From the NCBI GenBank assembly GCA_044892505.1, contig CM097882.1, forward strand, positions 240,622,001-240,686,000: DNA of 64,000 nt, in the 5' to 3' direction. Position 1 is the stretch's first letter. Each line of letters begins with the position of its first letter. The position numbers and the translations under genes are program-made. The notes beneath the pieces are model-generated. The model worked only from the letters and a program-made list of their open reading frames with translations. It made no database searches and was not told the origin of the DNA. Shown here in pieces: positions 1 through 34,576 of the stretch. The stretch comes from Schmidtea nova. Its lineage: Eukaryota.

Positions 1-19
1 AAAATTTATTAAATAACAA

Positions 20-436
20 TTAGGCGTATCGTGCATTATCAACTCTCCAAATTGGAGTTGTCACTTCCTTTTTATCAACCTTGTATCCTTGAATGATTAT
101 CGTAACGAACCAGTGTTCTTGATCAATGAAATCGATTGTTTGATAAGCATTATGGAAACGAGTCTTCCTGTTATTGATATACATCGTTTCTTTACAAATT
201 AAATTCACATTGATTTTTGAAAATACTCTATTTAGTGCGATAATATCCTCTTTATCAATAATAATAGATAGACTATCATACAACGACTTTGTTAATTTTA
301 CGGGATAAGATAAGCGAAACGGAATTTCTTCTACCAAGAAATAGATTCGGCTATCATAATACATCTGGACTGGTTTCACCTCAGTCGGGAATAATCTTTC
401 TTCGCTGACATCATAACCTCGTTTTCGTGAATCCAT
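20..436 (-). CDS. Polinton accessory protein, 138 aa (mirror copy of 4710-5126)
   Basis: Same translation as 4710-5126; homologous to the TIR ORFs 24996-25412 and 40743-41159. Confidence 0.8.
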   Translation of the reverse strand: MDSRKRGYDVSEERLFPTEVKPVQMYYDSRIYFLVEEIPFRLSYPVKLTKSLYDSLSIIIDKEDIIALNRVFSKINVNLICKETMYINNRKTRFHNAYQTIDFIDQEHWFVTIIIQGYKVDKKEVTTPIWRVDNARYA

Positions 437-922
437 TTTTATAAATTGTGACAAATTTGTAGAAATGACTTTGTATTTATAGTGAGGACTGGATGCCTTT
501 GTCCAATCACAATCATGCATTTGTATTGCACACGTTATGCATGTCTTTGTTTTAAGTGTGTGTGTGTGTGTTGTATTTTGTACATTTATATTTATATCAC
601 AATAATTTATTTATTTATTTATTTCACAATAATTTTTATTCAAATACTATTTTTTAATCTTAGTAAATAAAAAGTTTAATACTAATTATTTAAAGTTAAA
701 ATAATTAATTAAATTCAAAATAATAACTTAAAGTCAAATAAAAACTATTACTTAAATAATATTACTAATAAACTATTACTAGTAACTAATTAAAAACTAA
801 AACTATTACTAAAAAACTAATAAAAACTAATAAAACTAAAACTAAAACTAAAAAATAAAAACATTTATTAATATGAAAAAACCTAAAATGACAAAAACTA
901 GAAAATGACAGTTTACAAAATG

Positions 923-1395
923 TTATTCAGCTACTCGGTGACATTCGTCACAATCTGGAGATTCGGGAGACTCCATTGGCTCATCGGATTTGAGAGGATA
1001 TGGCCCATCCAGAGTTGGGCAATCAGAATGAGCCGGACAATCTGTAGATTCAATCGATTGATCTGGAGTTGAATTTGGCCAGGACTCCTTCATATCTTCA
1101 TCTTCTTCCTCAATTGTTTCGAGGTTTTGAGTCTCGAATTCTTTTAGGGCGTTTCTGAGGAGCCAAATATTGAATCGGCGGATCCTCTCAACGCAATTTC
1201 CACACTGATATGCGCAGAGGATATGTTCCGAAACGTGGGGCAAATCATTGTGAATATTTGCCAGATGGTCGAGGACGATTTGGTTGACATCGATCCCGGT
1301 CATGATCTGGATCTTGTACGGCAGAATTTCTGCTGCCGTGTATGCCAAGGTAGGCATTAATTTCGGGAAGATTTCTTCGAGCTTGCCCAGGACCA
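923..1395 (-). pseudogene. Mirror copy of exon 2 of the Cys/His acidic-tail ORF, lacking its 5' exon and fused out of frame to integrase
   Basis: Reverse complement of 3753-4225; junction with integrase sequence at 1395/1396. Confidence 0.85.
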
Positions 1396-1686
1396 ACGCG
1401 CAAAACGACTGTAAACATCAATACATGTTAAAATATACTTGTATCCCTTGTTAATTTTTGAATACGGAATCATTTCCATCAAATCCATTTGCCACAAATC
1501 ATTGATTCTATACGTTTTATATGATCTAGTTGGAAACCGTTTCAGCATCGGTTTGTTTAGACTGTATGCAAGTTGCCCCGATAACCAGCTTTGTGTCTGT
1601 TGTTTCGACTTCTGTACTTTTTTCCTTAACTTTTCGACTCCACCGAAACCGGCTTCGTCTTTTGAGTTCGTCCAGATCTTCTCCAT
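1396..1686 (-). pseudogene. Polinton integrase 5' fragment, truncated after the first catalytic Asp
   Basis: MEKIWTN..GFGGVEKL..WQMDLMEM..YILTCIDVYSRFAR, nearly identical to 29524-29815, then switches to unrelated sequence. Confidence 0.92.
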
Positions 1687-1741
1687 TACAACAAGAAGAT
1701 TTAAAGTTTAAATTTAAATTAGGTAATGATTGACCCATTGT

Positions 1742-2272
1742 TTATGACGTTCTTTTTCCCAATAAACCAGCACCACCTAATAACGATAAAGCTAGGGGTA
1801 ATAATGCGGCAATAAACCCTCCTTGTTGTTTATATATTATTTTACGCATAAGTTTTTTATTTTTTGTTTTTACAAGTGATAACAATGGTTTTTTATGCTT
1901 GTTCAAAACCCGACGATTAGAAGGAGTTAGATTCATTTTACCTCTAACGACTTTAATTAAAATAGCGAGTAAATCATCAATGACGTAATTGGGAAACGAC
2001 TGAAGAATACCCATTCTTCTAGCACTGGGGGCTTTTAGCAATGCATTAAAGAACGGAAAACTCCGATGATGTATTTGTTTAGGATTAGATTTCAAAATAG
2101 GGGGAATTTGATTTTGTTTGGGAAAATTATCCATAATTAGTTTTTTCGAAGGAGTATAACTAGTTTTAGAAATGGGTTTCGAAACTGATTTCTTTGTTTT
2201 CTTTGTTTTCTTTGTTTTCTTCATTGTTTTTCTTGCCTTTATCAAGCGTTCAAACTTTACTCTAGATTTCAT
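1742..2272 (-). CDS. Basic Polinton core protein with an adenovirus pX-like C-terminus
   Basis: Lys-rich N-terminus; C-terminal QQGG-FIAALLPLALSLLGGAGLLG resembles the adenoviral pX GG-F hydrophobic tail; lies between ATPase and integrase. Confidence 0.6.
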   Translation of the reverse strand: MKSRVKFERLIKARKTMKKTKKTKKTKKSVSKPISKTSYTPSKKLIMDNFPKQNQIPPILKSNPKQIHHRSFPFFNALLKAPSARRMGILQSFPNYVIDDLLAILIKVVRGKMNLTPSNRRVLNKHKKPLLSLVKTKNKKLMRKIIYKQQGGFIAALLPLALSLLGGAGLLGKRTS

Positions 2273-2298
2273 TAATATGATTACTACTGTAAATATAT

Positions 2299-2922
2299 TT
2301 AACTTTGTTTATAAACCATGGCTCCTTCCTTGTTAAAAATATCAGTTCTAACTCTTAAATCATCACTGCATTGTTGCGTAAAATCCAAGAAAAGATATCC
2401 ATGAGGAGATTTTGTAGCATCCTGAAACGCATCAATCAAGAAATTCCGATTAGAGGGGTATGCTTGTCTTGCCAGAAAATCAATAACTGTTGCATCACGA
2501 GGATTTTTAAAAACAACAAGATATTGAACATTTAAATTACGAGTTTGATGACTACCACCCTGATGAAATAAATTCTGAGTAATAAAAATAACTGTAACAC
2601 CTTTGTGTCTAGCGATTTTCGTAAATAAATTATTAAAATCCTTTTCTTTATTTGCTTCTTGATACAAGTCATCAATAATAATCACATCCCCTTCTCTTAA
2701 TCTAGATGACCAGTTTTTATCGAAACCTTTTATGATTGTCATTTTTATTTTACAAAACTGATCTTGAGTCATACCGCTTTCGTCGTCAGCACCCCTATGC
2801 CAATAAATTTTATTAAACTTTGATTTGAATAATTTAGATTGTAATAATTTACAAACAAACAAAGTTTTTCCGCTCCCGCTCGGGCCGACAATTTGGTACA
2901 CTGCATCATTTCTTAATTCCAT
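2299..2922 (-). CDS. A32/FtsK-like genome-packaging ATPase, intact, 207 aa
   Basis: Walker A GPSGSGKT, Walker B VIIIDD, ARH..VTVIFITQNLF motif and GYLFLD motif typical of Polinton ATPases. Confidence 0.92.
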   Translation of the reverse strand: MELRNDAVYQIVGPSGSGKTLFVCKLLQSKLFKSKFNKIYWHRGADDESGMTQDQFCKIKMTIIKGFDKNWSSRLREGDVIIIDDLYQEANKEKDFNNLFTKIARHKGVTVIFITQNLFHQGGSHQTRNLNVQYLVVFKNPRDATVIDFLARQAYPSNRNFLIDAFQDATKSPHGYLFLDFTQQCSDDLRVRTDIFNKEGAMVYKQS

Positions 2923-3011
2923 GTTTGTAATTATTTATTAGTATTATTATTGTTTATATTGATTAAAATATTAATTATCTCTTTGTTGTTAGATTTAAAA
3001 TATTTTTAATA

Positions 3012-3479
3012 ATGATTAGAAACATTAATTACAAGGGTAAGACAGATGTGTCGCACATGATATTTCCAACTGGGAAACCACAGCAAATTGTAGATAGAAG
3101 TGGAAAATACCCAATAATATACTTTAAGACAGGCAGATATAGAATAATGGGATGCAAGGAATTTATTAGTGATGAAAAAGTAAAGTCTCACGATTTAACA
3201 ATACAATCGATAACTGTGACTGCAGATTTAGGATTTATTTGTAATTTAAATGAGTTATCTAAATTGATTCCATGTGTTTATGAACCAGAATTATTTCCAG
3301 CTTTAAGATATACAAAATATAATCCAATGTGTGTCAATATTTTTGCTAGTGGTAAAGTAGTCATATTAGGATTAAAAAATAAAGACTATGCTAATATAGT
3401 TGATAATATTATTAACGATATAAAATCAATTATAGAAGATAAAGCCTTTGTTGATTTCATACTAACATGTGACTCATGA
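3012..3479 (+). CDS. TATA-binding-protein (TBP)-like protein, 155 aa, Polinton-encoded
   Basis: IQSITVTADL..LNEL..YEPELFPAL.Y..NPMCVNIFASGKVVILGLK matches TBP repeat 2 (IQN.V.S.D..YEPELFPGL.Y....VLLIF.SGKVVLTGAK); degenerate repeat 1 (IIYFKTGRYRIMGCK); second copy at 26723-27189. Confidence 0.85.
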   Translation: MIRNINYKGKTDVSHMIFPTGKPQQIVDRSGKYPIIYFKTGRYRIMGCKEFISDEKVKSHDLTIQSITVTADLGFICNLNELSKLIPCVYEPELFPALRYTKYNPMCVNIFASGKVVILGLKNKDYANIVDNIINDIKSIIEDKAFVDFILTCDS

Positions 3480-3514
3480 CTGCAATATTCATGCACTGGA
3501 AATGCACGATTCTG

Positions 3515-3625
3515 ATTGGTCGAGTGTGTATCGATAGAATAAAGACATGTTGTGCATGCTTGATTCTTATTGGTTGAAAGTTGTTCATTTCGTACATGAT
3601 GTGTGTTTCTATCGTATATATACTA
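3515..3625 (+). promoter_or_regulatory. Putative Pol II promoter: two ATTGG (reverse CCAAT) boxes plus a TATA-like element
   Basis: ATTGG at 3515 and 3569, TATATATA at 3615, ATG at 3656; conserved in copy 2 (about 26575-26690, minus strand). Confidence 0.55.
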
Positions 3626-3655
3626 AGAACATTCTCTCATAATTTAGAATTAAAA

Positions 3656-4225
3656 ATGTGCTTACAAGAAAATATGATTAAAAATGGTAAAGATTTTAAT
3701 TAATCTTTTTTCAATTTAAAATTATTTCTTTTTTCAGGAAAACTGATGAACGTGGTCCTGGGCAAGCTCGAAGAAATCTTCCCGAAATTAATGCCTACCT
3801 TGGCATACACGGCAGCAGAAATTCTGCCGTACAAGATCCAGATCATGACCGGGATCGATGTCAACCAAATCGTCCTCGACCATCTGGCAAATATTCACAA
3901 TGATTTGCCCCACGTTTCGGAACATATCCTCTGCGCATATCAGTGTGGAAATTGCGTTGAGAGGATCCGCCGATTCAATATTTGGCTCCTCAGAAACGCC
4001 CTAAAAGAATTCGAGACTCAAAACCTCGAAACAATTGAGGAAGAAGATGAAGATATGAAGGAGTCCTGGCCAAATTCAACTCCAGATCAATCGATTGAAT
4101 CTACAGATTGTCCGGCTCATTCTGATTGCCCAACTCTGGATGGGCCATATTCTCTCGAATCCGATGAGCCAATGGAGTCTCCCGAATCTCCAGATTGTGA
4201 CGAATGTCACCGAGTAGCTGAATAA
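3656..4225 (+). CDS. Two-exon Polinton accessory gene (exons 3656-3686 and 3738-4225; 51-bp intron), 172 aa, Cys/His cluster and acidic tail
   Basis: GTAAAG..TTTTCAG intron restores the frame MCLQENMIKN-G-KLMNVV; same intron at 26459-26509 in copy 2; HILCAYQCGNC motif. Confidence 0.75.
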
Positions 4226-4638
4226 CATTTTGTAAACTGTCATTTTCTAGTTTTTGTCATTTTAGGTTTTTTCATATTAATAAATGTTTTTATTTTTTAG
4301 TTTTAGTTTTAGTTTTATTAGTTTTTATTAGTTTTTTAGTAATAGTTTTAGTTTTTAATTAGTTACTAGTAATAGTTTATTAGTAATATTATTTAAGTAA
4401 TAGTTTTTATTTGACTTTAAGTTATTATTTTGAATTTAATTAATTATTTTAACTTTAAATAATTAGTATTAAACCTTTTATTTACTAAGATTAAAAAATA
4501 GTATTTGAATAAAAATTATTGTGAAATAAATAAATAAATAAATTATTGTGATATAAATATAAATGTACAAAATACAACACACACACACACTTAAAACAAA
4601 GACATGCATAACGTGTGCAATACAAATGCATGATTGTG

Positions 4639-4672
4639 ATTGGACAAAGGCATCCAGTCCTCACTATAAATA
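4639..4672 (+). promoter_or_regulatory. ATTGG-N21-TATAAATA promoter of the 138-aa ORF
   Basis: ATTGG 4639-4643, TATAAATA 4665-4672, ATG 4710; same spacing at 40672/40698. Confidence 0.6.
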
Positions 4673-4709
4673 CAAAGTCATTTCTACAAATTTGTCACAA
4701 TTTATAAAA

Positions 4710-5126
4710 ATGGATTCACGAAAACGAGGTTATGATGTCAGCGAAGAAAGATTATTCCCGACTGAGGTGAAACCAGTCCAGATGTATTATGATAGCCGAA
4801 TCTATTTCTTGGTAGAAGAAATTCCGTTTCGCTTATCTTATCCCGTAAAATTAACAAAGTCGTTGTATGATAGTCTATCTATTATTATTGATAAAGAGGA
4901 TATTATCGCACTAAATAGAGTATTTTCAAAAATCAATGTGAATTTAATTTGTAAAGAAACGATGTATATCAATAACAGGAAGACTCGTTTCCATAATGCT
5001 TATCAAACAATCGATTTCATTGATCAAGAACACTGGTTCGTTACGATAATCATTCAAGGATACAAGGTTGATAAAAAGGAAGTGACAACTCCAATTTGGA
5101 GAGTTGATAATGCACGATACGCCTAA
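4710..5126 (+). CDS. Polinton accessory protein, 138 aa, function unknown
   Basis: Start placed at the ATG downstream of the TATA box, which gives the same length as the copy 2 homologue; four copies in the window. Confidence 0.8.
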   Translation: MDSRKRGYDVSEERLFPTEVKPVQMYYDSRIYFLVEEIPFRLSYPVKLTKSLYDSLSIIIDKEDIIALNRVFSKINVNLICKETMYINNRKTRFHNAYQTIDFIDQEHWFVTIIIQGYKVDKKEVTTPIWRVDNARYA

Positions 5127-5191
5127 TTGTTATTTAATAAATTTTACTATGAACAAATTTAGTTTTTTATTTTATTTTGTATTTATTTAAA

Positions 5192-5774
5192 ATGAAACTG
5201 CTTATAACCATGTTTGTATTTTTATTGTGTGTTCAAAATACTGATGGAGAACAGGCTTTAGAAGCTTGCCAATCAACCCATCCGTTTAGAAGAGAAGATA
5301 GTACTTGTGCGAGTTATAATGAAATATGTGTTTACTCAAACACTGAATGCAATCAAATAAAATTACAATGTGATCAATGTCCTTCAAAAAATAATTTGAT
5401 TAATAATAATGATATTGAAAAAATAATTAGCAAAATAAAATTACAATGTCCCTCAAAAAATGATTTGATTAATAATGAAATGGAAAAAATAATGATGAAA
5501 ATAATGATGAAAATTGTTGAAAGTTTGAAATGTACGAATCAAACAATTGTTAAAAAACAATATGAAGTCAGATACCAAAATCAAACAGTTGAAAGCGAAA
5601 AAACATCGATAGTTTTACATTACATAAGTTTATTCATATTAATAATGATCTTGATATTGGCAACATCGATAAGGTTAGAGAATATTAATAAGAATAAAAT
5701 TCCTGTAAATAATGTTCCTATGAATAATATTCCTAGTAGTAATAATTTTGAATCCAAATTTTGTACACGTTCGC
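5192..5774 (+). CDS. Predicted type I membrane protein (signal peptide, Cys-rich ectodomain, TM helix); 3' end in gap
   Basis: MKLLITMFVFLLCVQNTDG signal-like segment; C-x12-C-x2-Y-x3-C-x6-C-x6-C-x2-C cluster; IVLHYISLFILIMILILATSI TM; absent from copy 2. Confidence 0.6.
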
Positions 5775-6028
5775 NNNNNNNNNNNNNNNNNNNNNNNNNN
5801 NNNNNNNNNNNNNNNNNNNNNNNNNNNNNNNNNNNNNNNNNNNNNNNNNNNNNNNNNNNNNNNNNNNNNNNNNNNNNNNNNNNNNNNNNNNNNNNNNNNN
5901 NNNNNNNNNNNNNNNNNNNNNNNNNNNNNNNNNNNNNNNNNNNNNNNNNNNNNNNNNNNNNNNNNNNNNNNNNNNNNNNNNNNNNNNNNNNNNNNNNNNN
6001 NNNNNNNNNNNNNNNNNNNNNNNNNNNN
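5775..6028. other. Assembly gap; others at 7791-8370, 8455-8734, 35147-35477, 39634-39928 and 44394-44521
   Basis: N runs. Confidence 1.
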
Positions 6029-7035
6029 AGAACGCGCGTTTCACGCGCGTTCAATGAGTACTGTGATTTGTCTTATAAAACAAGGAAGAAGAACGCGCGT
6101 TTCACGCGCGTTCAATGAGTACAGTAATTTGTCTTAAACACACACACACAATTTATCTCTGTACAAAAAATTATTATTATTAAAAATTATATTTCATTAG
6201 TCTTTGTTTCGTTGCACATGGATTTCATTGTCTTTGTTAATATTTGTTGATGAGTCATACTGATGAGTCATTCTGATGAGTCATACTGATGAGTCATCCC
6301 AATGAGTCATTAAGAAAACCGTACTTACCTTTATATCCTTGTTTTGTACCCTTTGATGGTTGAGCACCCGCCATAGACCTTGGAAGGTATGACCATTGTG
6401 TGCACCTTTCAATTACCTTTTGTTTGATATGTATATTATAAGGATTGAAAAAGGTTGAAGGCTTTTGACCCCTTGAAGGTTAAGGACCCTCCATACACCT
6501 TCGAGGGTATGACCATCTTACTTACCTCCCAATTACCTTTTGTTTGATATGTATATTATAAGGATTGTAAAAGGTTGAAGGTTTTTGACCCCTTGAAGGT
6601 TAAGGATCCTCCATACACCTTCGAGGGTATGACCATCTTACTTACCTCCCAATTACCTTTTGTTTGATATGTATATTATAAGGATTGTAAAAGGTTGAAG
6701 GTTTTTGACCCCTTGAAGGTTAAGGACCCTCCATACACCTTCGAGGGTATGACCATTGGATAGACCTTTAAAAGACCTTTCGAATGATACCCTTGTTTGA
6801 AAGTCTGACCTTATTGGACCCTTGGGAATTTAAATTCAAAATTTGAATTTGAAATGAGTCATCGATGACGTCATAAAATTCAAATTTGAAATGAGTCATC
6901 GATGACGTCATCGATTAGTCATCGATGACGTCATTTATGAGTCATCCCGGGGGAGGGGGAGGGGGTATGGGTTACTCATCGATGACGTCATTTCCTTTGT
7001 TCTGCGATGACTCATGGTGCACACTTCTGTCTACT
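6029..7035. repeat. Terminal (TIR-type) region of Polinton copy 1
   Basis: Same order of subrepeats as 41260-42185: ACGCGCGT hairpin repeats, 120-bp minisatellite, AP-1/CRE array, CTACT end. Confidence 0.85.
6361..6780. repeat. 120-bp tandem minisatellite (about 3.5 units)
   Basis: Lines starting 6421, 6541 and 6661 are near-identical (tgtttgatatgtatattataaggattg...). Confidence 0.95.
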
Positions 7036-7629
7036 GGATACCCTGAAGACTTTGTAAAGAAACATTTCCTTAACGAACCATACCACAATAAACGCAACAA
7101 TAGAAAACACCAGAAACACAATAACAATAACAAACACACAACATATCTAAGATTACCTTACCTAAATGACACTACAGCCAACAAAATCACCAGCATTTTT
7201 AATCAAACAGATTTGCCTATCCACATCCGTCCAACATTCATAACCTCCGCACCGTTAAAATCACAACTCCGAAAGCCACCAATTTCCAACATCTCGAAAC
7301 ATAAATGTCTTTGCCGTTCCACAACCCGATGCTTTTGCTTTTCCAAAAATATAGTATAAAAACTTTCTTGTCAAAAATGTGATGCTACTTACATAGGAGA
7401 AACACATAGAACTTTTCGCACCCGACTTAATGAACATACTAAAATCAAAACCAGTAATTATTACGAACACTGGGAAAAAGTACATAAAACAACTCCATCT
7501 ATAGAAGAAACAAAATGCCAGATCCTACAAGAGGGATTCAAAAATTCATTACAAAGATTAGCTTCCGAGACTTTTTTCATAAAAAAATACAAACCGTCCA
7601 TCAACATTCAATTCGCACAAAAAAATTAA
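7036..7629 (+). mobile_element. Penelope-like element 3' fragment (end of RT plus GIY-YIG endonuclease), one nonsense codon
   Basis: GYP..F, then KNIV*KLSCQKCDATYIGETHRTFRTRLNEH..E..FIKKYKPSINIQ, the PLE GIY-YIG signature. Confidence 0.88.
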
Positions 7630-8734: not shown

Positions 8735-8910
8735 AATTAAAATTAAATTGACTTCATTTAAACAAAAAATTTAAATTTAAAAATTAACTTCATTTAAACA
8801 AAATTAAAAATTAAAAATTCACTTAATTTAAACAAAATTAAAAATTAAAAAAATTTTAGGGGGGGGGTAAAAATTTTTTTAGGGGGGGTTAAAAAATTTT
8901 TTTAGGGGGG
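8735..8910. repeat. Short AT-rich tandem repeats followed by three TTTTAG(G)n runs
   Basis: acttcatttaaacaaaa repeated about every 34 bp; three long G-runs in 8858-8910. Confidence 0.8.
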
Positions 8911-8923
8911 TCTGTTCCTGTTC

Positions 8924-21888: not shown

Positions 21889-23932
21889 TTAGAAATTGAA
21901 AACTCTGTACGCAATGGCGCCGAAAAGCTTTTACAACTCCACAAAGGCAAACCGCATCGCGTCTGTGTGCGCGACACAAATGTTGGTGTTGTAGTCGGTA
22001 TGCGCAAACAGACGCGAGGATCTTCGAATCGCTGTTGAAAGAAATAACTTTGGAGTTAAAAATAAATCGAATTATTGGATTTATTAAAAACATTTTCTTT
22101 AGCAGTTGTTTTGCTTGGCTGAATTTTTAAATTGGTTTTTGTTGCGGAGTTTTTTAAAATTAAAATTTATATTTAAAAAAGGGCTTTGGGACAGTCACTT
22201 GTTTATCTGTGCTTATTTGGGATTATTGGTTTTGTGTTTTTTAAGGATAATAAAATTATAAAGTCATTTTTAAATTTTGTAAACTGCGTAATTCACCATA
22301 ATGAATGAAATGCTAATTCACACGAGCAACATTATCAACTGGAAAAGCATTAAAATTAATCCACATTTAACATCGACAGATTAAATATTGAAATGCAGTA
22401 TTCAAGTTTTGAAATATTTTCAAGTGGAATGCAACAATCACAAGGATTTGATTCTGGGCGATAGATCGGATTTGAGAGTAATCGTGAAACTATTTCTCAT
22501 TAACAACCATTACGAAGACATTCTGAAGCATTTATCACAAATATTTAAATATTTGGAATGCAATGAATTGGATTCGTTGATTATTTCTATCGCTCCTGAA
22601 ACTATACGCTCTTCAATTTGTATACATGATGTATATTAGATCATATCAACCAAGCATCATTGTGATTTAATTCAACAATTCAGACTTGAAATTTGATGAG
22701 TAACACAATAGTTTAACCCTAATAGCAGAAAATTTGTAGCAGAACATTGATAGCAGAACATCTTTTGTGATGGTTTTTATCTACAAAAGCTTTATATTGT
22801 ATTTAACTATACTACAAGTGCATGCCCTATGCGTAACACACATAACATGAATCGTTCACTCACAGGTCATTTTATCTACTTTGTTTTAAAATAAACCCAT
22901 CATTATAGCAATGTTTTATTGATTTATGTAATTTTTGTCATTATTTTGATCAATCACATAAATTTTACAGTCTTATTGTGTTAAAAATTGATTTTATTTA
23001 CATAAATTTAAAAATTAATTAATTTTACTTAGACAAGAATGTAAAATCATTAAATTTTACACTCGTATCTAACTTAAGTAATATGTATTTAATTAGTTTT
23101 ACAAAAGAATCTATATTAATCTCTTTAAACCTTTAAATAATCATTAAAATTAATATCAAACAAACATACATTTATTTTCGATAAATTAAATTTACAATAG
23201 CATAAATGCTACAGAATTCAATTTTTATCTTCGATATATTTTTAATCTTCTTTGGTTTTACTAATAGTCCTACTATTTTTAACCAATTCTATAAGTTTTC
23301 GCCACTGTCCATTTTCTGGAACCCAGGGGAATATTTCACTTTGGATAATCTAAAATAATAATAATAATAATAAAAATAATGATATATTTAAAAAATAATA
23401 TAACTGTACTGACCACTGAAAATAATTTTCATAATTTGAACCTGAATTATTCATTATTTGTTTTATATACATAACGCCACAATGACATGTGACCACTTCA
23501 TTTCAGACTCAAATAACGAGTAAAACACGCTTTTGAATGCATATTTCTTGCTTGTAGCCTATTTCTGATTCAAAATCCATGAATAGTCGATAGAATTGAA
23601 ATGATATATTTTCTCGGTATCAGACACCAAAATTTGTAAATTTGTTATGACTTTAACATCATTGTCATCTTTTTCTTTTGATAAGAGACTATCAATAAAA
23701 TTTAAAATAAATATTTCTTGATTCATTTCATTAATAAGAGTAAATTTTCAAGTGTTTAAACAAATTTATTCAAGATTTGTATGTGTATTACTCATGAATT
23801 ACAACTTGATTGCATCTCAATTGTAATTTGATTGCATCTCAAGAGCATGGACAACAAATATATTGTAATACAACTCTAAGTCATACAACTACATGTAAAA
23901 AATGTTATTTGAGTAGGCAGTTATGTGCCCTC

Positions 23933-24193
23933 TGACTCATCGTTAAACAAAGACAATGACGTCATCGATGACTCATAACAAAGAACATGAGTCACTCCTA
24001 CCCCCCCACTCCCGCCCATATGACTCATCGATGACTCATCGATGACTCATCAGTATGCCTCATCGATGACTCATCGGTATGCCTCATCGATGACTCATCA
24101 GTATGACTCATCGATGACTCACCAGTATGACTCATCGATGACTCACCGATGACTCATTTCAAATTTGAATTTTATGACGTCATCGATGACTCA
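23933..24193. promoter_or_regulatory. Subterminal array of AP-1-type (TGACTCA) and CRE-type (TGACGTCA) motifs
   Basis: 14 TGACTCA/TGAGTCA heptamers and 2 TGACGTCA octamers counted in about 260 bp. Regulatory function is inferred. Confidence 0.55.
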
Positions 24194-24995
24194 TTTCAAA
24201 TTTTAAATTTGAATTTCCAAAGGTTAAATAAGGTCAAACCGTCAAACAAGGGTATCATTCGAAAGGTCTTTGAGAGGTCTATACAATGGTCATACCCTCG
24301 AAGGTTTATGGAGGGCCATGAACCTTCAAAGGGTCCAAAACCTTCAAATCTTTTTAAACCTTATAATATAGATATCATTCGAAAGGTAATTGAGAGGTAA
24401 GTATGATAGTCATACCCTCGAAGGTCTATTGTGTATGCTCAACCTTCAAGAGTCTTAAACCTTCAAAAATTTTCAAACCTTATAATATACATATCATTCA
24501 AAAGGACTTTTGAAGGTGAGTTCGAAGGTCATACCCTTGAAAGTTCCAAGGTTCAAAAATTTGAAAACCTTATAATATGTATAATATGTATGGTGTGTGT
24601 ATGTAAAATTTATCAATCACTATTTTATAAAATTTCGTACCTAAATTTAAACAAGGACATTGCAATGCAGATTCAACTTAACAAAGACATTGCAAAGTAA
24701 ATGCAACGAGACAAAGACTAATGAAATATAACTTTTAATAAAATTTTTGTACACGGATATCTTGCGTGTGTGTGTGTTTGAGACAAATAAAAGTACGCAT
24801 TGAACGCGCGTTTCACGCGCGTTCTTCTTCCCTTGTTGTTTAAGACAAATAACAGTATGCAATGAGCGCGCGTGGAACGCGCGTTCTTCTGCCCTTGTTG
24901 TTTAAGACAAATAACAAAATTTATGAAAATTCCAACAATCAAAAACTAAAATTTAAATTAATAACATTTATTAAATAACATTTGTAAAATAACAT

Positions 24996-25412
24996 TTATG
25001 CATATCGTGCACTGTCAATTCTCCAAATTGGAGTTATAACATCTTTTGTATCGATTTTATATCCCTGAATGATTATGGTAATAAACCAATTTTCTTGATC
25101 CTTGTATTCGATCGATTGGAAAGCATCATGGAAACGGGTTTTTCGGTTGTTGATCCATATAGTTTCCTTGCAACTTAAATTGTTATTGATTTTGAATAAA
25201 ATTTTATTTAGTGCAACAACATCTTCTTTACTTAGATTTGCAGCTAAACTGTCATACAATGACTTTGTTAATTTCACTGGATATGACAAACGAAACGGTA
25301 TTTCTTGTACCAAGAAATAAATTTTGTAATCGTTATACATTTGTACTGGTTTGACTTCATTATTGATTTTTCTTTCTTCACTAATGTCATAAGTTGATTT
25401 ACGTGCTGGCAT
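24996..25412 (-). CDS. TIR-encoded 138-aa accessory protein
   Basis: Open frame, homologous to 4710-5126; mirror at 40743-41159. Confidence 0.8.
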   Translation of the reverse strand: MPARKSTYDISEERKINNEVKPVQMYNDYKIYFLVQEIPFRLSYPVKLTKSLYDSLAANLSKEDVVALNKILFKINNNLSCKETIWINNRKTRFHDAFQSIEYKDQENWFITIIIQGYKIDTKDVITPIWRIDSARYA

Positions 25413-26015
25413 TTTATAAATTGTGACAACATCTTAAAAAATGTCTTTGTATTTATAGTCACGGATGTATGTCTTTGTCCAATCAGAATCATGCATTTGT
25501 ATTGCACACGTTATGCATGTCTTTGTCACGTGTCTTTGTAACATGTTTTGCTGCATGTATGTAATTGATGCATGTGTGTTTTTAATATTTATTTGTTTAA
25601 TAAATTCATTTTCAAATTATACCTTTAATAAAAATATCTTATTAAAAACAACTATTTAACTAATTAAAACCTTTTAGAGTCAATCTATAATAACCTATTA
25701 AAACATAAATAACACTTTAACTAATAAAAAGAATGTTTAAAGTAAATTTATAATTACTTATTTAAAAACTAAATAACACCTTAATACTCAGCATAACATC
25801 TTTTTAATAAACTTTATTTAGTTATAAAAATTGTTATTAAACTTATATCCCTTGTTAATAATAAAAGTCAAATAAAAAACTAAAAAAAATGACTACTACT
25901 TAAAAACTAATAAAAACTAAAACTAAAAACTAAAATATTTATTAAAATGAGAAATCTAAAAATTACATGAAACTAAAAATGACTGGTTACAAATAAAAAA
26001 CACACACATAAAATG

Positions 26016-26540
26016 TTATTGATTTTCTTGTTGTTCATCAGGAACTCTGTGACATTCGTCACAATCTGGAGATTGCGGCGATTCATCGCATACAATCATT
26101 GAAGTAGTCAGCTCGGGTGTTGAATTGGGCCAAGTTTCTTTCATATCTTCATCTTCCTCCTCAATTGTTTCGAGTTGCGAATCGAATTCTTTGAGGGCGT
26201 TTCGTAGAACCCAAATAAAAAATCGGCGGATCCTCTCAACGCAATTTCCGCATTGATATGCGCAGAGGATATGTTCCGATACGTGGGGCAAATCGTTGTG
26301 GATATTTGCCAGATGGTCCAAAACGATTTGATTGACATCTATGCCAGTCATGATCTGGATCTTGTACGGCAGAATTTCTGGTGCCGTATATGCCAGGGTA
26401 GGCATTAGTTTCGGGAACATTTCTTCTAACTTGGCCAAGACCACGTTCATCAGTTTTCCTGAAAAAATAAATAATATTAAAATTGAAAAAGATTAATTAA
26501 AATCTTTACCATTTTTAATCATAGTTTTTTGTAAGCACAT
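26016..26540 (-). CDS. Two-exon Cys/His acidic-tail accessory gene (intron 26459-26509)
   Basis: Homologue of 3656-4225 with a conserved 51-bp GT-AG intron; MCLQKTMIKN-G-KLMNVV. Confidence 0.75.
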
Positions 26541-26722
26541 GCTGTTTTATAATTCTAAATTATGATTGAATGTTCTTAGTATATATACGATAGAAACACA
26601 CATCATGTACGAAATGAACAACTTTAAACCAATAAGAATCAAGCAGGCAAAACATGTCTTTATTCTATCGATACACACTCGACCAATCAGAATCGTGCAT
26701 TTCCATTGCATCAATATTGCAG

Positions 26723-27189
26723 TCATGAGTCACATGTTAGTATGAAATCAACAAAGGCTTTATCTTCTATAATTGATTTTATATCATTAATAATATTATC
26801 AACTATATTAGCATAGTCTTTGTTTTTTAATCCTAATATGACTACTTTACCACTAGCAAAAATATTGACACACATTGGATTATATTTTGTATATCTTAAA
26901 GCTGGAAATAATTCTGGTTCATAAACACATGGAATCAATTTAGATAACTCATTTAAATTACAAATAAATCTTAAATCTGCAATCACAGTTATCGATTGTA
27001 TTGTTAAATCGTGAAACTTTACTTTTTCATCGCTAATAAATTCCTTGCATCCCATTATTCTATATCTGCCTGCCTTAAAGTATATTATCGGATACTTTCC
27101 ACTTCTATCTACAATTTGCTGTGGTTTCCCAGTTGGAAATATCATATGTGACACATCTGTCTTACCTTGTAATTAATGTTTCTAATCAT
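26723..27189 (-). pseudogene. TBP-like gene, 1-nt deletion near codon 8
   Basis: About 97% identical in nucleotides to 3012-3479; aagggtaag became aaggtaag; the downstream frame is open. Confidence 0.8.
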
Positions 27190-27279
27190 TAATAAAAATA
27201 TTTTTAAATGTAACAACAAAGAGATAATTAATATTTTAATCAATATAAACAATAATAATACTAATAAATAATTACAAAC

Positions 27280-28934
27280 ATGGAATTAAGAAATGATGCA
27301 GTTTACTAAATTGTCGGCCCGAGCGGGAGCGGAAAAACTTTGTTTGTTTGTAAATTATTACAATCTAAATTATTCAAATCAAAGTTTAATAAAATTTATT
27401 GGCATAGGGGCGCTGATGATGAACATGGAATGACTCAAGATCAGTTTTGTAAAATAAAAATGACAATCATAAAAGGTTTCGATAAAAACTGGTCATCTAG
27501 ATTAAGAGAAGGGGATGTGATTATTATTGACGACTTGTATCAAGAAGCAAATAAAGAAAAGGATTTCAATAATTTATTTACGAAAATCGCTAGACACAAG
27601 GGTGTTACAGTTATTTTTATTACTCAGAATTTATTTCATCAGGGCGGTAGTCATCGAATTCGCAATTTAAATGTTCAATATCTTGTTGTTTTTAAAAATC
27701 CTCGAGATGCAACAGTTATTGATTTTCTGGCAAGACAAGCATACCCCTCTAATCAGAATTTCTTAATTGATGCGTTTCAGGATGCTACAAAAGCTCCTCA
27801 TGGATATCTTTTCCTTGATTTCACACAACAATGCAGGGTGGCCGGACAAAATGTCCGCGGACAAAATGTCACGGACAAAATGTCACGGACAAAATGTCAT
27901 GAGGACAAAATGGCACGGGACAAAATTTCCGCGGACAAAATGTCACGGACAAAATGGCACGGACAAAATGTCACGGACTCACAGACAAAAAATTGCGGAA
28001 AAAAATATAAGACAGAAAAACAATGAAAATATTTCAATAATGCATTTATCAAATTTAGTCTAACTTTATTATAATAATTATATGGCACGGACAAAATGTC
28101 CGCGGAAAAAAATCGCGGGAAAAAAACACAGACAAAAAAAATGTGCAGTTAAAATGTAACCATTATTATTCGCCCGGCCGGCTAGTAAAACTTGAACCAA
28201 GCCAGGTTCCAACCAAAGACATTGACTGGGAGACGTCACTGCTTCTTATTTCCGTGTCAACTTAAAATTACTCAACTCTGCAATCTGGTGACAGATTTCT
28301 TGAACGCATTGGCATAAAATTTCTATAACAACGGCTGGGAGGAAAAAGAAAACATACATCCGCGTCAACGAGGCATTGCATGCCATGGTGACCGACTACA
28401 ACAACCGAGATCCAATCACATATTTAGGAGACATTGCACGTGTTTTAAACATTAATGTTGTTTGACTTCATTAGTTATTTTCATTGATAAAAGACTCGAT
28501 TATTTATTTATGTTATTATTATGTTATAAGACTAAGCTATTTTATTAACTGAATATCTAACACTAAATTAATATAGGCTAGATATAATTATTATAATAAA
28601 GTTAGACTAAATTTGATAAATGCATTATTGAAATATTTTCATTGTTTTTCTGTCTTATATTTTTTTCCGCAATTTTTTGTCTGTGAGTCCGTGACATTTT
28701 GTCCGTGCCATTTTGTCCCGTGCCATTTTGTCCTCATGACATTTTGTCCGTGACATTTTGTCCGCGGACATTTTGTCCCGTGCCATTTTGTCCTCATGAC
28801 ATTTTGTCCGTGACATTTTGTCCGTGACATTTTGTCCGCGGACATTTTGTCCTAGCACCCAATGCAGTGATGATTTAAGAGTTAGAACTGATATTTTCAA
28901 CAAGGAAGGAGCCATGGTTTATAAACAAAGTTAA
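27280..28934 (+). pseudogene. Packaging ATPase, disrupted by a TAA at 27307 and by an insertion at 27836-28860
   Basis: Colinear with the intact copy 2299-2922; the empty-site sequence acaacAATGCAgtgat is restored when the insertion is removed. Confidence 0.92.
27836..28860. mobile_element. Non-autonomous foldback-type DNA transposon, 1,025 bp
   Basis: GGGTG..CACCC ends, TIRs 27836-28083 and 28582-28860 built from GGACAAAATGTC repeats, 6-bp TSD AATGCA. Confidence 0.9.
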
Positions 28935-28954
28935 ATATATTTACAGTAGTAATC

Positions 28955-29468
28955 ATGTTAATGAAATCTAGAGTAAAGTTTGAGCGCTTGATAAAGGCTA
29001 GAAAAACAATGAAGAAAACAAAGAAAACAAAGAAATCAGTTCCGAAACCTGTTTCTAAAACTAGTTATACTCCTTCGAAAAAACTAATTATGGATAATTT
29101 TCCCAAACAAAATAAAATTCCCCCTATTTTGAAATCTAATCCTAAACAAATATATCATCGGAGTTTTCCGTTTTTTAATGCATTGCTTAAATCACCCAGT
29201 GTTAGAAGAATGGGTATTCTTCAATCGTTTCCTAATTACGTTATTGATGATTTACTCGCTATTTTAATTAGAGTCGTTAGAGGTAAAATGAATCTAACTC
29301 CATCTAATCATCGTGTTTTGAACAAGCACAAAAAACCATTGTTATCACTTGTCAAAACTTATGCGTAAAATAATATATAAACAACAAGGAGGGTTTATTG
29401 CCGCATTGTTACCCCTAGCTTTATCATTATTAGGTGGTGCTGGTTTATTGGGAAAAAGAAAGTCATAA
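28955..29468 (+). pseudogene. pX-like core protein gene with a 14-bp frameshifting deletion
   Basis: Versus copy 1, aaaac[aaaaaataaaaaac]ttatg is deleted near 29357; the QQGGF tail is still present out of frame. Confidence 0.8.
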
Positions 29469-29523
29469 ACAATGGGTCAATCATTACCTAATTTAAATTT
29501 AAACTTTAAATCTTTTTGTTGTA

Positions 29524-30570
29524 ATGGAGAAGATCTGGACGAACCCAAAAGACGACGCCGGTTTCGGTGGAGTCGAAAAGTTAAGGAAAAAAGCACAGAA
29601 GTCGAAACAACAGACACAAAGCTGGTTATCGGGGAAACTTGCATACAGTCTAAACAAACCGATGCTGAAACGGTTTCCAACTAGGGCATATAAAACGTAT
29701 AGAATCAATGATTTGTGGCAAATGGATTTGATGGAAATGATTCCGTATTCAAAAATTAACAAGGGATACAAGTATATTTTAACATGTATTGATGTTTACA
29801 GTCGATTTGCTCGGGCTATCGCAGTAAAATCTAAATCCGCTAATGATATGGCAATCGCGATCAAAGCAATGATGAAAAAGGATCGTCCAACTAATTTACA
29901 AACCGATTTGGGTAAGCTAATAAATATTTTATAAAATGATAATTATTAATCTAGGTAAGGAATTTTACAACAGTAAAGTCAAGGAAGTTATTAAGGGAAT
30001 CAATCATTACTCGGTATTCTCGCAATTCAAAGCAGCCCATGTCGAGAGATTTAATCGTACATTACGAGATCGGCTCAAAAAGTATTTTGTACATCAAGGT
30101 AATAAAACATGGAATAATGTTTTACCACAAATGATCCATAGTTATAATCATTCTGCTCATCGAGGTATAAATGACAGGAAACCTGCTGAAGTAGTTAATA
30201 CTGAAAATATCGTGAGTAATACAATAACAAAGAAACCCAAATATAAAATTGGTGATCATGTTCGAATTAGTAAAATTAGTGCATCGCCATTCATTAAAAA
30301 TTTTGATAGAAATTGGAGTGATGAGGTATTTAAAATATCCAAGGTCAACACAGTCCAGAATCCTGTCATGTATACTATTTCTGAGTCTGATAACAATGTA
30401 GTCAGTGGGAAATTCTATGAACAAGAATTACAAGTTATACCCCTCCGACAATATTTAGAATTCAAAAAATATTGGAAACTAAAATGGTAGGTAAGGATAA
30501 ACAATACTACGTCAAGTGGCATGGATATAAAGAACCATCATGGATTTCGTCAAAAAACATAGTAAAATGA
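29524..30570 (+). pseudogene. Polinton DDE integrase with C-terminal chromodomain; 43-bp intron 29912-29954; 1-nt frameshift near 30441
   Basis: WQMDL..IDVYSRF, spliced TDLG-KEFYN, HVERFNRTLR; shifted frame gives FRIQKILETK..QYYVKWHGY..SWI (chromodomain), stop at 30568-30570. Confidence 0.9.
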
Positions 30571-31583
30571 ATTTTTACACTCTTTTACCGTGCAATAGTT
30601 GCCCGAATATCCATCCAGATAATACCGCAAGTAAATTCATGGTCAATCTACAAAATCCTATTTATTTACATGGAAATTGGGAAGTTGCTCTATTGGATTT
30701 TACATTTGTTTACCAACCTTTTCCATTTTATAGTCAATGTAAAATTTTTTACAATCAAATAAGAACGACTGTTGCATATGCATTTTTCTCGATATATAAT
30801 GATAGTGGCAAGCTTAATGTTCCAACTCACACTATTGATCCAGATATCGAAATGCGGTATAGAAGTGGCAGAATTCTTCTCACATGTAATTTTCTTCCTT
30901 ATACAATTACATTTAATAATCTTGATGATGCAAAACGAATGGGAAGTAATAAACTAACATTCACATGTAATGAAGAAGAATGTGAATTCAGAGTTTCGCA
31001 AAAAGCTGGTAGTAAAGATGAAGAAGTATTTAATTTCAGTATATCTTATAATAGAGATGAACTACATGTATTCACGTTCAAGAATGACTTGTATATAACG
31101 CATCTAGATGAATTACAGAAATATATTTCCGATAATTGTTCGGATATTTTTACTATTGTTGAATTAAATAAATTGTTCAAATTCAAACTAAAAGAAAATA
31201 TTTCTAATGTGAAATTTGATAAATACCTTGTACATACATTGGGATTAGATAAGGATACATTTAGCGGTAAAAATATCGTTTCTGGTGTTCGTCAACCGAA
31301 AATATCTAAACTTCATCAGCAATTATTCATATATAGTAACATTATCGAACCGATAATTGTTGGAGATTCTTTGGTTCCTTTACTGAAATCGGTATGGATC
31401 GAAAAATACGAGGTAGATGAAATTGTTCAAATACAAATAGAAAATCCAATGTATTTATCGCTTTCGAATTCATGTATAAACAATATAGAAATAAATATCA
31501 GGGATGATAGTGGAAGATTAATAAACTTTCCAAAAGATTCAAAAACTCATTTAACTCTACATTTTCGGAAAAACGATGAGTAA
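30567..31583 (+). CDS. Minor capsid (penton-like) protein
   Basis: MNFYTLLPCNS..HPDNT..F...L.NPIYLHGNWEVAL N-terminus; YSNIIE..IVGD..PLL..INNIEINIRDDSG..LTLHFR C-terminus; ATG overlaps the INT stop (ATGA). Confidence 0.85.
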   Translation: MNFYTLLPCNSCPNIHPDNTASKFMVNLQNPIYLHGNWEVALLDFTFVYQPFPFYSQCKIFYNQIRTTVAYAFFSIYNDSGKLNVPTHTIDPDIEMRYRSGRILLTCNFLPYTITFNNLDDAKRMGSNKLTFTCNEEECEFRVSQKAGSKDEEVFNFSISYNRDELHVFTFKNDLYITHLDELQKYISDNCSDIFTIVELNKLFKFKLKENISNVKFDKYLVHTLGLDKDTFSGKNIVSGVRQPKISKLHQQLFIYSNIIEPIIVGDSLVPLLKSVWIEKYEVDEIVQIQIENPMYLSLSNSCINNIEINIRDDSGRLINFPKDSKTHLTLHFRKNDE

Positions 31584-31956
31584 TCCCGATATAGTTTCTT
31601 TGTACAGTAATAGCCAAACTGGTGGCGAATTACCGTATTTTGTAGGTAAACAGTATGGATCAGGTTGGTTGAAAACTATTGGTAGATTTGCACTTCCAAT
31701 ACTTAAGCGATTAGGTAGTTTTGGATTCAATACTGCCAAGGATGTTATCATGAAGGATAATAAAATATTACCATCATTGAAAACAAATGCTTTAGCCGCA
31801 GTTAACAAAGCAATACCTGCTGTAACACAAATGCTTCCTTCAATTACAAATATGTTTACAAAGAGTGAACCGGAACCTGTACCAGTAGGACCAAGACGTA
31901 AACGAAGACGTATAAACAAACGAATGAAAGGGCATGGAACTATATTTGAAGAATGA
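31576..31956 (+). CDS. Small basic Polinton core-type protein, 126 aa
   Basis: QTGGELPYFVG..QYGSGW....RFALPILK motif typical of Polinton core ORFs; Arg/Lys-rich C-terminus. Confidence 0.7.
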   Translation: MSNPDIVSLYSNSQTGGELPYFVGKQYGSGWLKTIGRFALPILKRLGSFGFNTAKDVIMKDNKILPSLKTNALAAVNKAIPAVTQMLPSITNMFTKSEPEPVPVGPRRKRRRINKRMKGHGTIFEE

Positions 31957-33170
31957 TTTGCGGTAAATCTGAATTATGTATTTTTGATCGACCAAGCCCC
32001 CAAGCAGTTATTGAATATGGGGTGTTTGAAGATGTGTTTCCAATGAATTCTATTACAGATAGTAGAAATGATGTTGAATTTTACATTAATGGTTCACAAA
32101 CCGAATATTTGGATTTGAACGATACATTATTATCCGTTACGGTCAAAGTTGTAGATAAAGATAAAAAACCTTTGGTTGATGCGAGTGATGTAGTACCTAA
32201 TAATTACTTGTTTCATACACTTTTCAAAGATGTAATTCTTGGATTTAATAATATAAAAATCGAGGGTGGAAACAATACTTATGCACACAAGGCAATAATC
32301 GAAACTATTTTAAATTATACGAATGATTCAAAAGAAACTTGTCTTACTCCCATGGGATATGGTGCAAGTGACGATAGAAAAAGGATCAAGGGATCGAAAC
32401 TTTTTAACATGTGTTCATCATTACAACTTGATTTTATGGATCAACCTAAATACTTACTTCCTGGAGTTAATGTACATATTAGATTGAAGCGATCTGATTC
32501 TGCACTATCTTTGAAATCGGCAACTGGGAAACCAATACTTCAATTACTAGATGCTAAATTAATGGTTCGAAGAGTTCGGTGTGAATCTTCAGTTTTGGCA
32601 GGTCATCAAATTGGCTTAAATAGCAAACATGCAATTTATCCGATAAAATCCAAAGAAATCGTATCGTTTGCTATTGGGAAAGGTGCATCATCATTTTACA
32701 AGGAGCAAATATTTGGAGATAGAAGAATGCCTAATTTCATTCTTGTGGCTTTTCAAACAGAAAATCAATATAACGGATCATATGTTGAATCTTCATCTAC
32801 ATTCAAACACTTTAATGTGACTTCATTATCATTGTCGAAAAATACCGATTATCGAGAAACTTATACTCAAGATTTTGAAAATGATAATTTTAGTGCCACA
32901 TATATGCAAAGTCTTGTACGAAATTTAGGATATTTGGATAAAAACTTGGATTGTGGTATAAGTCTGGATGAATTTAAAGCAAAATATCCATTCTTTACAT
33001 TTGTTCTGGCTCCCGATTTCGATTTGAATCAAAGTCAAATCCCTCAAAACGGTAATTTAAAGCTAGATATAAAGTTTGCTAAACCCATTGAGGAACCGGT
33101 TCATGTAATTATATATGGAATGTTTGAAAATGAAGTACAAATTACTGCCAATCGAACAGTATTGGTTTGA
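31953..33170 (+). CDS. Major capsid protein (double jelly roll), 405 aa
   Basis: KSELCIF..P.Q..IE.G, EYLDLNDTLL.V.VKV and LQLDFMDQPKYLLPGV.V.IRLKR motifs of Polinton MCP. Confidence 0.9.
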   Translation: MICGKSELCIFDRPSPQAVIEYGVFEDVFPMNSITDSRNDVEFYINGSQTEYLDLNDTLLSVTVKVVDKDKKPLVDASDVVPNNYLFHTLFKDVILGFNNIKIEGGNNTYAHKAIIETILNYTNDSKETCLTPMGYGASDDRKRIKGSKLFNMCSSLQLDFMDQPKYLLPGVNVHIRLKRSDSALSLKSATGKPILQLLDAKLMVRRVRCESSVLAGHQIGLNSKHAIYPIKSKEIVSFAIGKGASSFYKEQIFGDRRMPNFILVAFQTENQYNGSYVESSSTFKHFNVTSLSLSKNTDYRETYTQDFENDNFSATYMQSLVRNLGYLDKNLDCGISLDEFKAKYPFFTFVLAPDFDLNQSQIPQNGNLKLDIKFAKPIEEPVHVIIYGMFENEVQITANRTVLV

Positions 33171-33235
33171 GCAGTATTGGTTTGAGCAGAGCTCAAACAG
33201 TATAAATAACCAAAGTTATTATTATTATTATTATT

Positions 33236-33612
33236 ATGGAGTAAGTTTTTAATTGAATAATTTATTATTTTTAATTAGTTCTATTCAGGTATTACAGCAA
33301 GGTAAAAAACTATTGGGAAACCAATTTATCGGAGTTTTTCCGTTAGATAAAATACCTTATTTGAAAATGAATCAAGCCATCATTGTAAATACTCACACTT
33401 CTACTTTGGGCGGTGAACATTGGATTGCGGTTTACGTGAAACCGGATCGAATACATGTATTTGATCCCTTTGGATGTTATTATCCCAATTTACTTGTTCG
33501 AAAATTGCAAACTATTGGTAAACCTATTGTGTATAATAGAATTCGGTATCAACATCCATTAACAACCACTTGCGGACAACATTGCCTTGCATGGCTAAAA
33601 TCAATGTTATAA
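33236..33612 (+). CDS. Adenain-like cysteine protease (ATGGA exon 33236-33240; 38-bp intron 33241-33278)
   Basis: GEHW, FDPFG and YQ....TTCGQHC catalytic motifs; splicing gives MDSIQV..FIGVFPLD; ATTGG-N20-TATAAATA upstream. Confidence 0.88.
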
Positions 33613-33645
33613 ACAATTTAGTTAAATAAATGTTATTGTAAAAAA

Positions 33646-34047
33646 ATGACTTGTTATTTTATTGATATTTATGGATATAATGAAATGGGTGGAACAACAA
33701 TTAAGGAATTATGTATTATGAATGTAAATAGTATTTTCACACCCTTGTATTATATATACAGTGATTTGTCTTTCTGGACTGATCGTTTAGAATCGTTTGA
33801 AGGACAAGATTATTTTTGCCCAAAATGTATAATGGATGATATTGAAGATAAAGGAGCTATTTTCTATGTTACAGATAATGAAAAGTTGCAAGTTTTGAAG
33901 AAATATTTCCCGAAATTGAGATTAATTAAATATAATTTTAAAGAATTTGAAGATGTTCCAGAAAATATCTCATGTCCATATAAAGACCATAGTATGTGTG
34001 CATATAAAGAATGCTTGTCTGGTGTAATAGATTATTTAAAACAATAA
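33646..34047 (+). CDS. Polinton accessory protein, possible Maelstrom/DEDD-like fold, 133 aa
   Basis: FIDIYGY....IKEL.I, FYVTDNEK and C-x3-H-x2-CA pattern. Confidence 0.45.
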   Translation: MTCYFIDIYGYNEMGGTTIKELCIMNVNSIFTPLYYIYSDLSFWTDRLESFEGQDYFCPKCIMDDIEDKGAIFYVTDNEKLQVLKKYFPKLRLIKYNFKEFEDVPENISCPYKDHSMCAYKECLSGVIDYLKQ

Positions 34048-34576
34048 ATATATTATTCGTGTTTTATTTTTATTATTATTAATATTTTCATAAACTTGCA
34101 GAATTCACATCCAATTTGCAGATAAACATCCATCTAGCAATACTTTTCGATTATCATAAAGAAATTGCATGCAGACACGCATGCAGACACTCAATTTTTT
34201 CACATATAAATTGACTTGGGTGTATTCACATCTGCATCTACACCCATAAGATATTTCATAAACTCATTAGTCACGTAGTGTCTTTGTATCATTGCATCCG
34301 ACATGCTTCGTGCAATATAACAAAGACATAACTCATACTTGGTGAGTTAATTATTAACACACATACTTGGTGAGTGATTTTTAACATACATACTTAGTGT
34401 GCACACATACTTTTTCTACCCTATCTCACTTGTGATTGGTTCGTGAATAAAGTTTGTAATAAAGTTTGTAATAAAGTTTGTAATAAACGTGATATATACT
34501 ATATGTTTTCATTATTTCATCACAATTAAAACAAATCATTTAAAAACATTATAAAATTATTATTTTACAAAGAAAA

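Follow-up and report, generated by a model that had tools for sequence, protein, structure and literature searches.

A Polinton bounded by two copies of one end

The window analyzed here is a 64,000-nucleotide stretch of Schmidtea nova DNA, C1:240622001-240686000, within a 1.25-Gb assembly (GCA_044892505.1; C1 is contig CM097882.1), and its first 7,035 positions belong to an integrated element of the Polinton (Maverick) type, both arms of which derive from the right end of its parent. Positions 1-1395 match the reverse complement of 3753-5145 at 99.64% identity in self-comparison, with three substitutions and one 2-bp indel, as an initial annotation of this DNA had recognized. That annotation also expected the mirror to run on through a membrane-protein gene, and we found that it extends another 1,909 bp upstream of the window, across a 200-aa open reading frame (ORF) and the terminal inverted repeat (TIR), with the left arm starting at C1:240620092 (its upstream part is 8092-10000 of locus L021). 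In total the element measures 8,944 bp and is composed of a left arm of 3,304 bp, whose inner part lies at 1..1395 (−) as judged from self-comparison and the upstream DNA, a unique core of 2,357 bp (1396..3752), and a right arm of 3,283 bp (3753..7035, (+) strand). The right arm comprises ~2.0 kb of normally unique genes and the native TIR. As the native TIR of this family is ~1.2 kb (21 sampled places), the 3.3-kb arms are extended by ~2.0 kb, and internal sequence of that length has been recruited into each of them. The TIRs have AG...CT ends, and the right end is an intact CTACT terminus. The AGTAG terminus anticipated at the left is not there; the left arm lacks 10 terminal bases that the right end has and opens with the second AGT, so that it still starts with AG. 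Compared with four close relatives, the mirror junction (1395..1397) has two shared bases and one extra base. The extra base had been described before, whereas the three-base CGT homology proposed with it comes down to two shared bases, which is chance level, and a meaningful microhomology at the junction is unsupported.

The hexamer GGATAC lies directly outside both ends of the element, at 7036..7041 (+) and immediately before the left arm, and the flanks are two parts of one Penelope-like ORF. The 3′ part (7036..7626, (+) strand) encodes a GIY-YIG endonuclease (PF01541, E 3.2e-5), and the 5′ part lies upstream of the window, where it had been predicted along with the hexamer. Uninterrupted Penelope targets at three other loci (L122, L267 and L268) each have a single GGATAC, indicating that the 6-bp target-site duplication (TSD) is real. 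The interrupted Penelope copy is 5′-truncated and is itself inside an older Polinton polymerase gene (L021 6850-8091), making three nested insertions. At L267 and L268 (C1:56.06 and 56.19 Mb), outward-facing polymerase arms stand tail to tail around Penelope sequence, an arrangement that occurs twice.

Across the fold, the integrase gene is cut. A truncated ORF of 109 aa (1357..1686, (−) strand; rve E 2.6e-5) consists of 97 integrase residues and 12 out-of-frame residues from the mirror arm. Only the 5′ part of the gene is present, and the rve match (24.9 bits) is under the curated cut-off, which is exceeded by the integrase of copy 2, a second Polinton in the window. The break lies just after the region of the first catalytic Asp (Pfam rve positions 3-38), in agreement with the initial annotation. 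The core also holds a basic 176-aa ORF with no Pfam match (1742..2272, (−) strand), an A32-like packaging ATPase of 207 aa (2299..2922, (−) strand; Pox_A32 E 1.5e-6, above cut-off) and a TBP-like ORF of 155 aa (3012..3479, (+) strand; PF00352 E 6e-15), a gene that this Polinton family carries. The three ORFs of the arms have no Pfam match. The first, of 159 aa (3746..4225, (+) strand), is mirrored without its start at 923-1357 (−), and the second, of 187 aa (4563..5126, (+) strand), is mirrored as a 166-aa ORF at 20-520 (−). The third (5192..5774, (+) strand) reaches a stretch of N, and its left mirrored copy is the 200-aa ORF upstream of the window; with its hydrophobic N-terminal and internal stretches, judged by eye, it is predicted to encode a membrane protein. 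Neither a protein-primed PolB gene, which relatives in the family possess, nor a double jelly-roll capsid gene is present in the 8.9-kb element. Without polymerase and capsid genes, and with its integrase cut, the element is non-autonomous. The genuine TSD and private variants shared by the arms bear out the earlier description in that the element is integrated, is non-autonomous and takes both of its arms from a single end; that it retained 'both origins' is unsupported or unproven, the left end being 10 bases short.

History of this copy

A 33-base word spanning the junction matched once in the assembly with up to one mismatch allowed, and no second copy of the junction was found; amplification of the element is thus not seen. 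The two arms differ by 11 substitutions and seven indels, and word tests showed that nearly every differing site pairs an allele common in the family with one private to a single arm. Against 42 other copies, four substitutions in the core are private (1665, 2276, 2546 and 3496), and the extensions have one common to both arms (3815, (+) strand), two restricted to the right and one restricted to the left. Among 20 examined of the best 40 genome-wide matches to the region around 3815, none carried that shared substitution. The TIRs likewise have in common one or two private substitutions and a short repeat array. That private variants are shared in both TIR and extension shows that the whole arm was copied from one template.

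Arm-specific substitutions number 10-11 over ~6.2 kb, comparable to the 4 per 2.36 kb in the core, indicating that mirror and insertion are of about the same age. This age is compatible with formation just before insertion or with early repair after it, and separates neither. By alignment, arm differences are denser in the TIR (7-8) than in the extension (3). Ordinary copies (n = 29) have 1.0, 0.57 and 0.75 private substitutions per kb in TIR, extension and core, respectively, and after calibration on these regional rates the TIR excess was insignificant (P 0.15-0.22), leading us to reject it as proof of a post-integration origin.

The parent family

The terminal 24-base motif of the family occurs 3,676 times in the assembly, corresponding to ~1,800 elements. 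Adjacent end pairs in the first 30 Mb gave a median unit length of 18,126 bp, with 29 of 35 pairs at 14-23 kb. Left and right TIRs were mismatched in 18 of 28 ordinary copies, and copies are mosaics of haplotype blocks; together these features point to heavy recombination among family copies. At C1:33.92-33.94 Mb (L051-L053), a full-length copy is followed by its right half again, as a 9-kb tandem repeat.

Copy 2 (23912..42185) is a decayed Polinton of another subfamily, with TSD TATTTG and 2-kb gene-bearing arms, inside which lies a 138-aa ORF. The layout of its polymerase-side arm recurs in at least 39 other places (40 of 40 places among the matches listed), and the arm-extended form may have spread in this subfamily. 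A 405-aa ORF of copy 2 scored 0.98 to clusters in which 15-30% of members have DJR-like domains, a match of low recognition value, and searches of Pfam and of PDB sequences returned nothing for it; this ORF is a lead, a candidate for a jelly-roll-like capsid protein.

A population of mirror elements

Mirrors were sought as inward-facing pairs of arm markers beyond the native TIR, in lists scored by eye. Right-arm marker lists gave 2/98, 3/37, 2/38 and 0/38 elements, and left-arm lists gave 3/97, 5/35 and 3/36, plus one pair unexamined. Accordingly, about 3% of copies carry right-end mirrors and about 6% left-end mirrors, percentages that are rough because the lists overlap at the start of C1 and favor young copies, and by rough extrapolation the genome holds on the order of a hundred. 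Sixteen of the 17 marker pairs examined were mirrors, the pair at C1:49.4 Mb being two separate elements instead. A matching 6-bp TSD bounded 13 of the 16; two of the others had lost an end and one carried an inverted piece of host flank (57 bp). Three further loci came from searches with the end motif: C2:399.11 Mb (TSD AACAAA), C1:168.89 Mb, whose TSD TATATA lies in a TA tract and is uninformative, and C2:27.92 Mb, which has an inverted flank. Aside from the element in the window, 15 TSD-bounded mirrors were identified in the genome. Short candidates of 11.2, 15.1, 15.9 and 8.3 kb were rejected, as none mirrors past its own TIRs; the 15.9-kb candidate fits the references poorly.

Junctions across the population vary: some share 5-13 bases, some coincide with native hairpins, some are joined bluntly and some carry 1-48 inserted bases (five at C1:18.70 Mb). 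Two folds are located on native hairpins. The mirror at C1:63.91 Mb (C1:63912286-63930619; L243, L244; TSD AGAGAT) joins right arms of two different family haplotypes, 84% identical in the 159-aa ORF. Near-perfect snap-backs also occur in the family. A snap-back at C1:96693070-96729482 (L248-L251; TSD CACAAT) has ~9.6-kb arms, is folded within a native hairpin array and has a further Polinton nested in just one of its arms. At C2:399111594-399124792 (L252, L169), three left arms are contained in 13.2 kb; an internal end lacking 10 bases is bluntly joined to the polymerase region, followed by a fold on a 9-bp native hairpin. Inverted duplications that cross a Polinton end into the flank, by 57 bp to >2.7 kb, were seen at L163/L257, L286/L287, L301/L302 and L278. 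At L165, L171, L172 and L274, the same non-Polinton sequence adjoins Polinton ends, inverted on both sides in L172, and this sequence is possibly a separate foldback element with captured Polinton termini.

Lengths, folds and terminal repeats of the mirrors

Seventeen mirrors measured 6.6, 8.9 (the copy in the window), 11.3, 12.5, 13.2, 13.5, 15.5, 16.9, 17.1, 17.2, 17.4, 18.1, 18.3, 18.6, 19.2 (minus a nested insert), 19.8 and 23.9 kb, the last including an internal end and 860 bp of inverted flank. Ten of the 17 fall at 0.86-1.09 of the 18.1-kb median, in a set that leaves aside a pair at C1:517.0 Mb which, if it is a mirror, would measure ~29 kb and lie above this ceiling. In 10 of 14 mapped elements, adding the two runs that start from the shared end gives 0.85-1.04 units, and no element exceeds this. 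Of nine snap-back folds, five are 8.4-9.6 kb from the end, and no fold is farther away (P ~0.001 against an even spread, 0.004 with one exception; C1:298.57 Mb and C1:168.89 Mb excluded). These length and fold ranges were picked post hoc, after the data were seen; short extensions are bounded near unit length regardless, and long palindromes were possibly lost in assembly.

Mismatched TIRs were found in 4 of 15 mirrors versus 18 of 28 ordinary copies (P 0.027). Pooled over 15 mirrors (without C1:168.89 Mb, of a rare subfamily, and C1:173.89 Mb, with an internal end), there was no significant excess of TIR age (15 versus 13.0 expected, P 0.28), as measured by a run-based difference counter that undercounts, giving two TIR differences for the copy in the window versus 7-8 by alignment. 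Six ends lacking exactly 10 bases were seen, versus none of eight at a control position (P 0.016-0.03). A changed base at position 9 was present in 75 ends, and the 30 of these that were read comprised 29 point variants and one short end; short ends thus made up 1/30 of this set and 5/12 of another, against 3,676 intact ends, and four of the six are within inverted structures.

Origin of the mirrored copy

We favor, at about even probability, an origin of the element by template switching during free, protein-primed Polinton replication, followed by integration. Synthesis from the right end would have run ~5.6 kb into the integrase gene, whereupon the new strand would have jumped to the displaced strand or to itself at the position of 3753 and copied back toward the end. 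Copying back may have finished, or later restarted, 10 bases early, at the second AGT. The resulting linear molecule, with a right-hand end on either side, would then have integrated once, without further amplification, with integrase likely supplied in trans. Population lengths near one unit could reflect stalling where forks from both ends meet, a size filter imposed by the capsid, or both; a capsid filter of this kind is known from adenovirus (PMC4189039). A copy-back origin was what the initial annotation had suggested; the population of similar elements tips the balance toward a replication origin, while repair after integration explains this one copy almost equally well. An origin in replication, which we judge to have a one-in-two chance of being the right account of the set, covers whole-arm copying, the better-matched TIRs, the lack of a TIR age excess, the two-haplotype mirror, the folds on hairpins and the pile-up at unit length.

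The chief alternative, to which we assign a substantial though smaller probability, is that a full-length copy integrated, that its left two thirds were then lost through a break or one-ended cut, and that host repair used the right arm to make an inverted copy, with the TSD kept. Here the flank would have been rejoined at the second AGT, in an extension to a whole arm of the TIR-extension model proposed for Galileo, for which break repair has been published (PMC3573991). Several observations weigh against replication, and a number of them suit repair. At 0.49 unit length, this copy lies outside an adenovirus-like length range, as do five other mirrors, and its 10-base-short outer end recurs in none of the 15 other TSD-bounded mirrors; a single repair event explains why the left end is short, why the length is halved and why both arms have the variant at 3815, and short ends are rare and concentrated in inverted structures. 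Host flank is included in four mirrors or inversions (C1:120.89, C1:173.89, C1:9.98 and C2:27.92 Mb), one of which is itself of unit length with a mid-genome fold, so integrated copies do act as templates for inverted copies in this genome. Inserted bases, a signature of host end joining, occur at 7 of 16 resolved junctions, and at C1:18.70 Mb an identical extension accompanies a mismatched TIR. Mirrors have shared private variants more often than ordinary TIR pairs do (12:33 versus 4:49, P 0.014, with a null diluted by mismatched TIRs), and the TIR differences of this copy (8 versus 3) lean toward repair without significance. No mirror junction was multiplied (three of three searched for siblings were unique), and no free Polinton DNA or particle was seen. 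On the other hand, repair does not explain why folds cluster at mid-genome or why lengths stop at one unit, it requires a deletion ending within three bases of the old terminus, and it predicts TIRs that are older and more often mismatched than extensions, a pattern that did not emerge in the set of 15 mirrors. Replication and repair may both be acting in this genome.

We regard a fold-back artefact of assembly or amplification as highly improbable. The ~1,800 near-identical family copies could mislead an assembler, and the listed Logan contigs of four public runs (seven are listed, none recorded as RNA) contained native continuations and no contig bridging the junction, a result that is uninformative given that such contigs drop single-copy variants. 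Against an artefact, the element has two different flanks that rejoin one Penelope ORF, a hexamer that is duplicated here and single at three other loci, and arm differences nearly all private to one arm, which together argue that it is not a fold-back chimera; the nested Polinton in only one arm of another mirror speaks against it as well. Scarcely more probable is a defective-interfering or satellite Polinton, copied by a helper and spreading as its own subfamily. In favor of this reading, the element keeps terminal repeats at both sides, and the copy 2 subfamily, with its gene-bearing 2-kb arm beside the polymerase in at least 40 places, indicates that an arm-extended layout can spread. Yet the junction occurs once in 1.25 Gb, the private variants of the element are in no sampled copy, and its left end is short. 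The element is a dead-end derivative.

Relation to known systems

In its AG...CT ends, 6-bp TSD and A32-like ATPase, and putatively in its cut RVE integrase, the element agrees with Polinton/Maverick elements (PMC8097293, PMC11161782), as do family members with protein-primed PolB and the candidate jelly-roll-like capsid ORF, and the 18.1-kb unit compares with ~17 kb in vertebrate Polintons (PMC8097293, PMC11161782). It differs in having both ends from one side and neither PolB nor capsid. The 3.3-kb arms contrast with vertebrate Polinton TIRs of 46-1,447 bp, and the ~1,800 young copies with a reported maximum of 287 (PMC8097293, PMC11161782). Polinton particles were unobserved as of PMC8097293, and replication was inferred from gene content.

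Copy-back and snap-back defective genomes are known from RNA viruses (PMC13506859), in which, as here, one end is copied back to give complementary arms around a unique core. In that literature they belong mainly to RNA viruses and adeno-associated virus (AAV), whereas the present case is double-stranded DNA, integrated in the germ line with TSDs, with no amplification seen. Adenovirus, likewise a protein-primed linear replicon, selects genomes of 75-105% length, short vectors being packed as direct and inverted dimers and out-of-range genomes rearranging toward unit length; those are free molecules in culture, unlike the integrated, half-length element described here (PMC4189039). In cytomegalovirus strains, one end region is replaced by an inverted copy of the other (PMC2885757). 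The Galileo 2RT elements resemble the mirrors in that sequence from the interior, adjacent to one TIR, is repeated in inverted form at the opposite end and that the longest arms are on non-autonomous copies, but they have a P-superfamily transposase and a 7-bp TSD rather than an RVE integrase and a 6-bp TSD (PMC3573991). Tracts recruited in Galileo span hundreds of bases and are explained by break repair, whereas those observed here span 1.5-8 kb and whole genes and pile up at unit length (PMC3573991). The same paper states that Polinton inverted-repeat expansion had been previously reported (PMC3573991). We found no account of copy-back or snap-back Polintons in the open-access literature. 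Snapback genomes of AAV are reportedly on record, and the kalilo plasmid is said to have a hairpin derivative, attributed to Vierula and Bertrand (1992), which is a free mitochondrial molecule, in contrast to the integrated element here.

As the published Polinton survey demanded integrase and PolB together, mirrors like these would be missed, and annotation pipelines with the same requirement overlook them. The TSD-bounded set records replication or repair events one by one, and the length ceiling and mid-genome folds constitute an assembly-only census test of free replication and packaging. If the repair model is true, the mirrors show Polinton TIR growth, gene capture and 3-9-kb inverted arms persisting at many loci. 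Bolder, and in our judgment rather unlikely, is the proposal that about a hundred copy-back and snap-back Polintons were born independently, each integrated once, with lengths capped at one unit by passage through the capsid. If that were true, this fossil library would be direct genomic evidence for free linear Polinton DNA, for adenovirus-like defective genomes and for packaging before germ-line entry.

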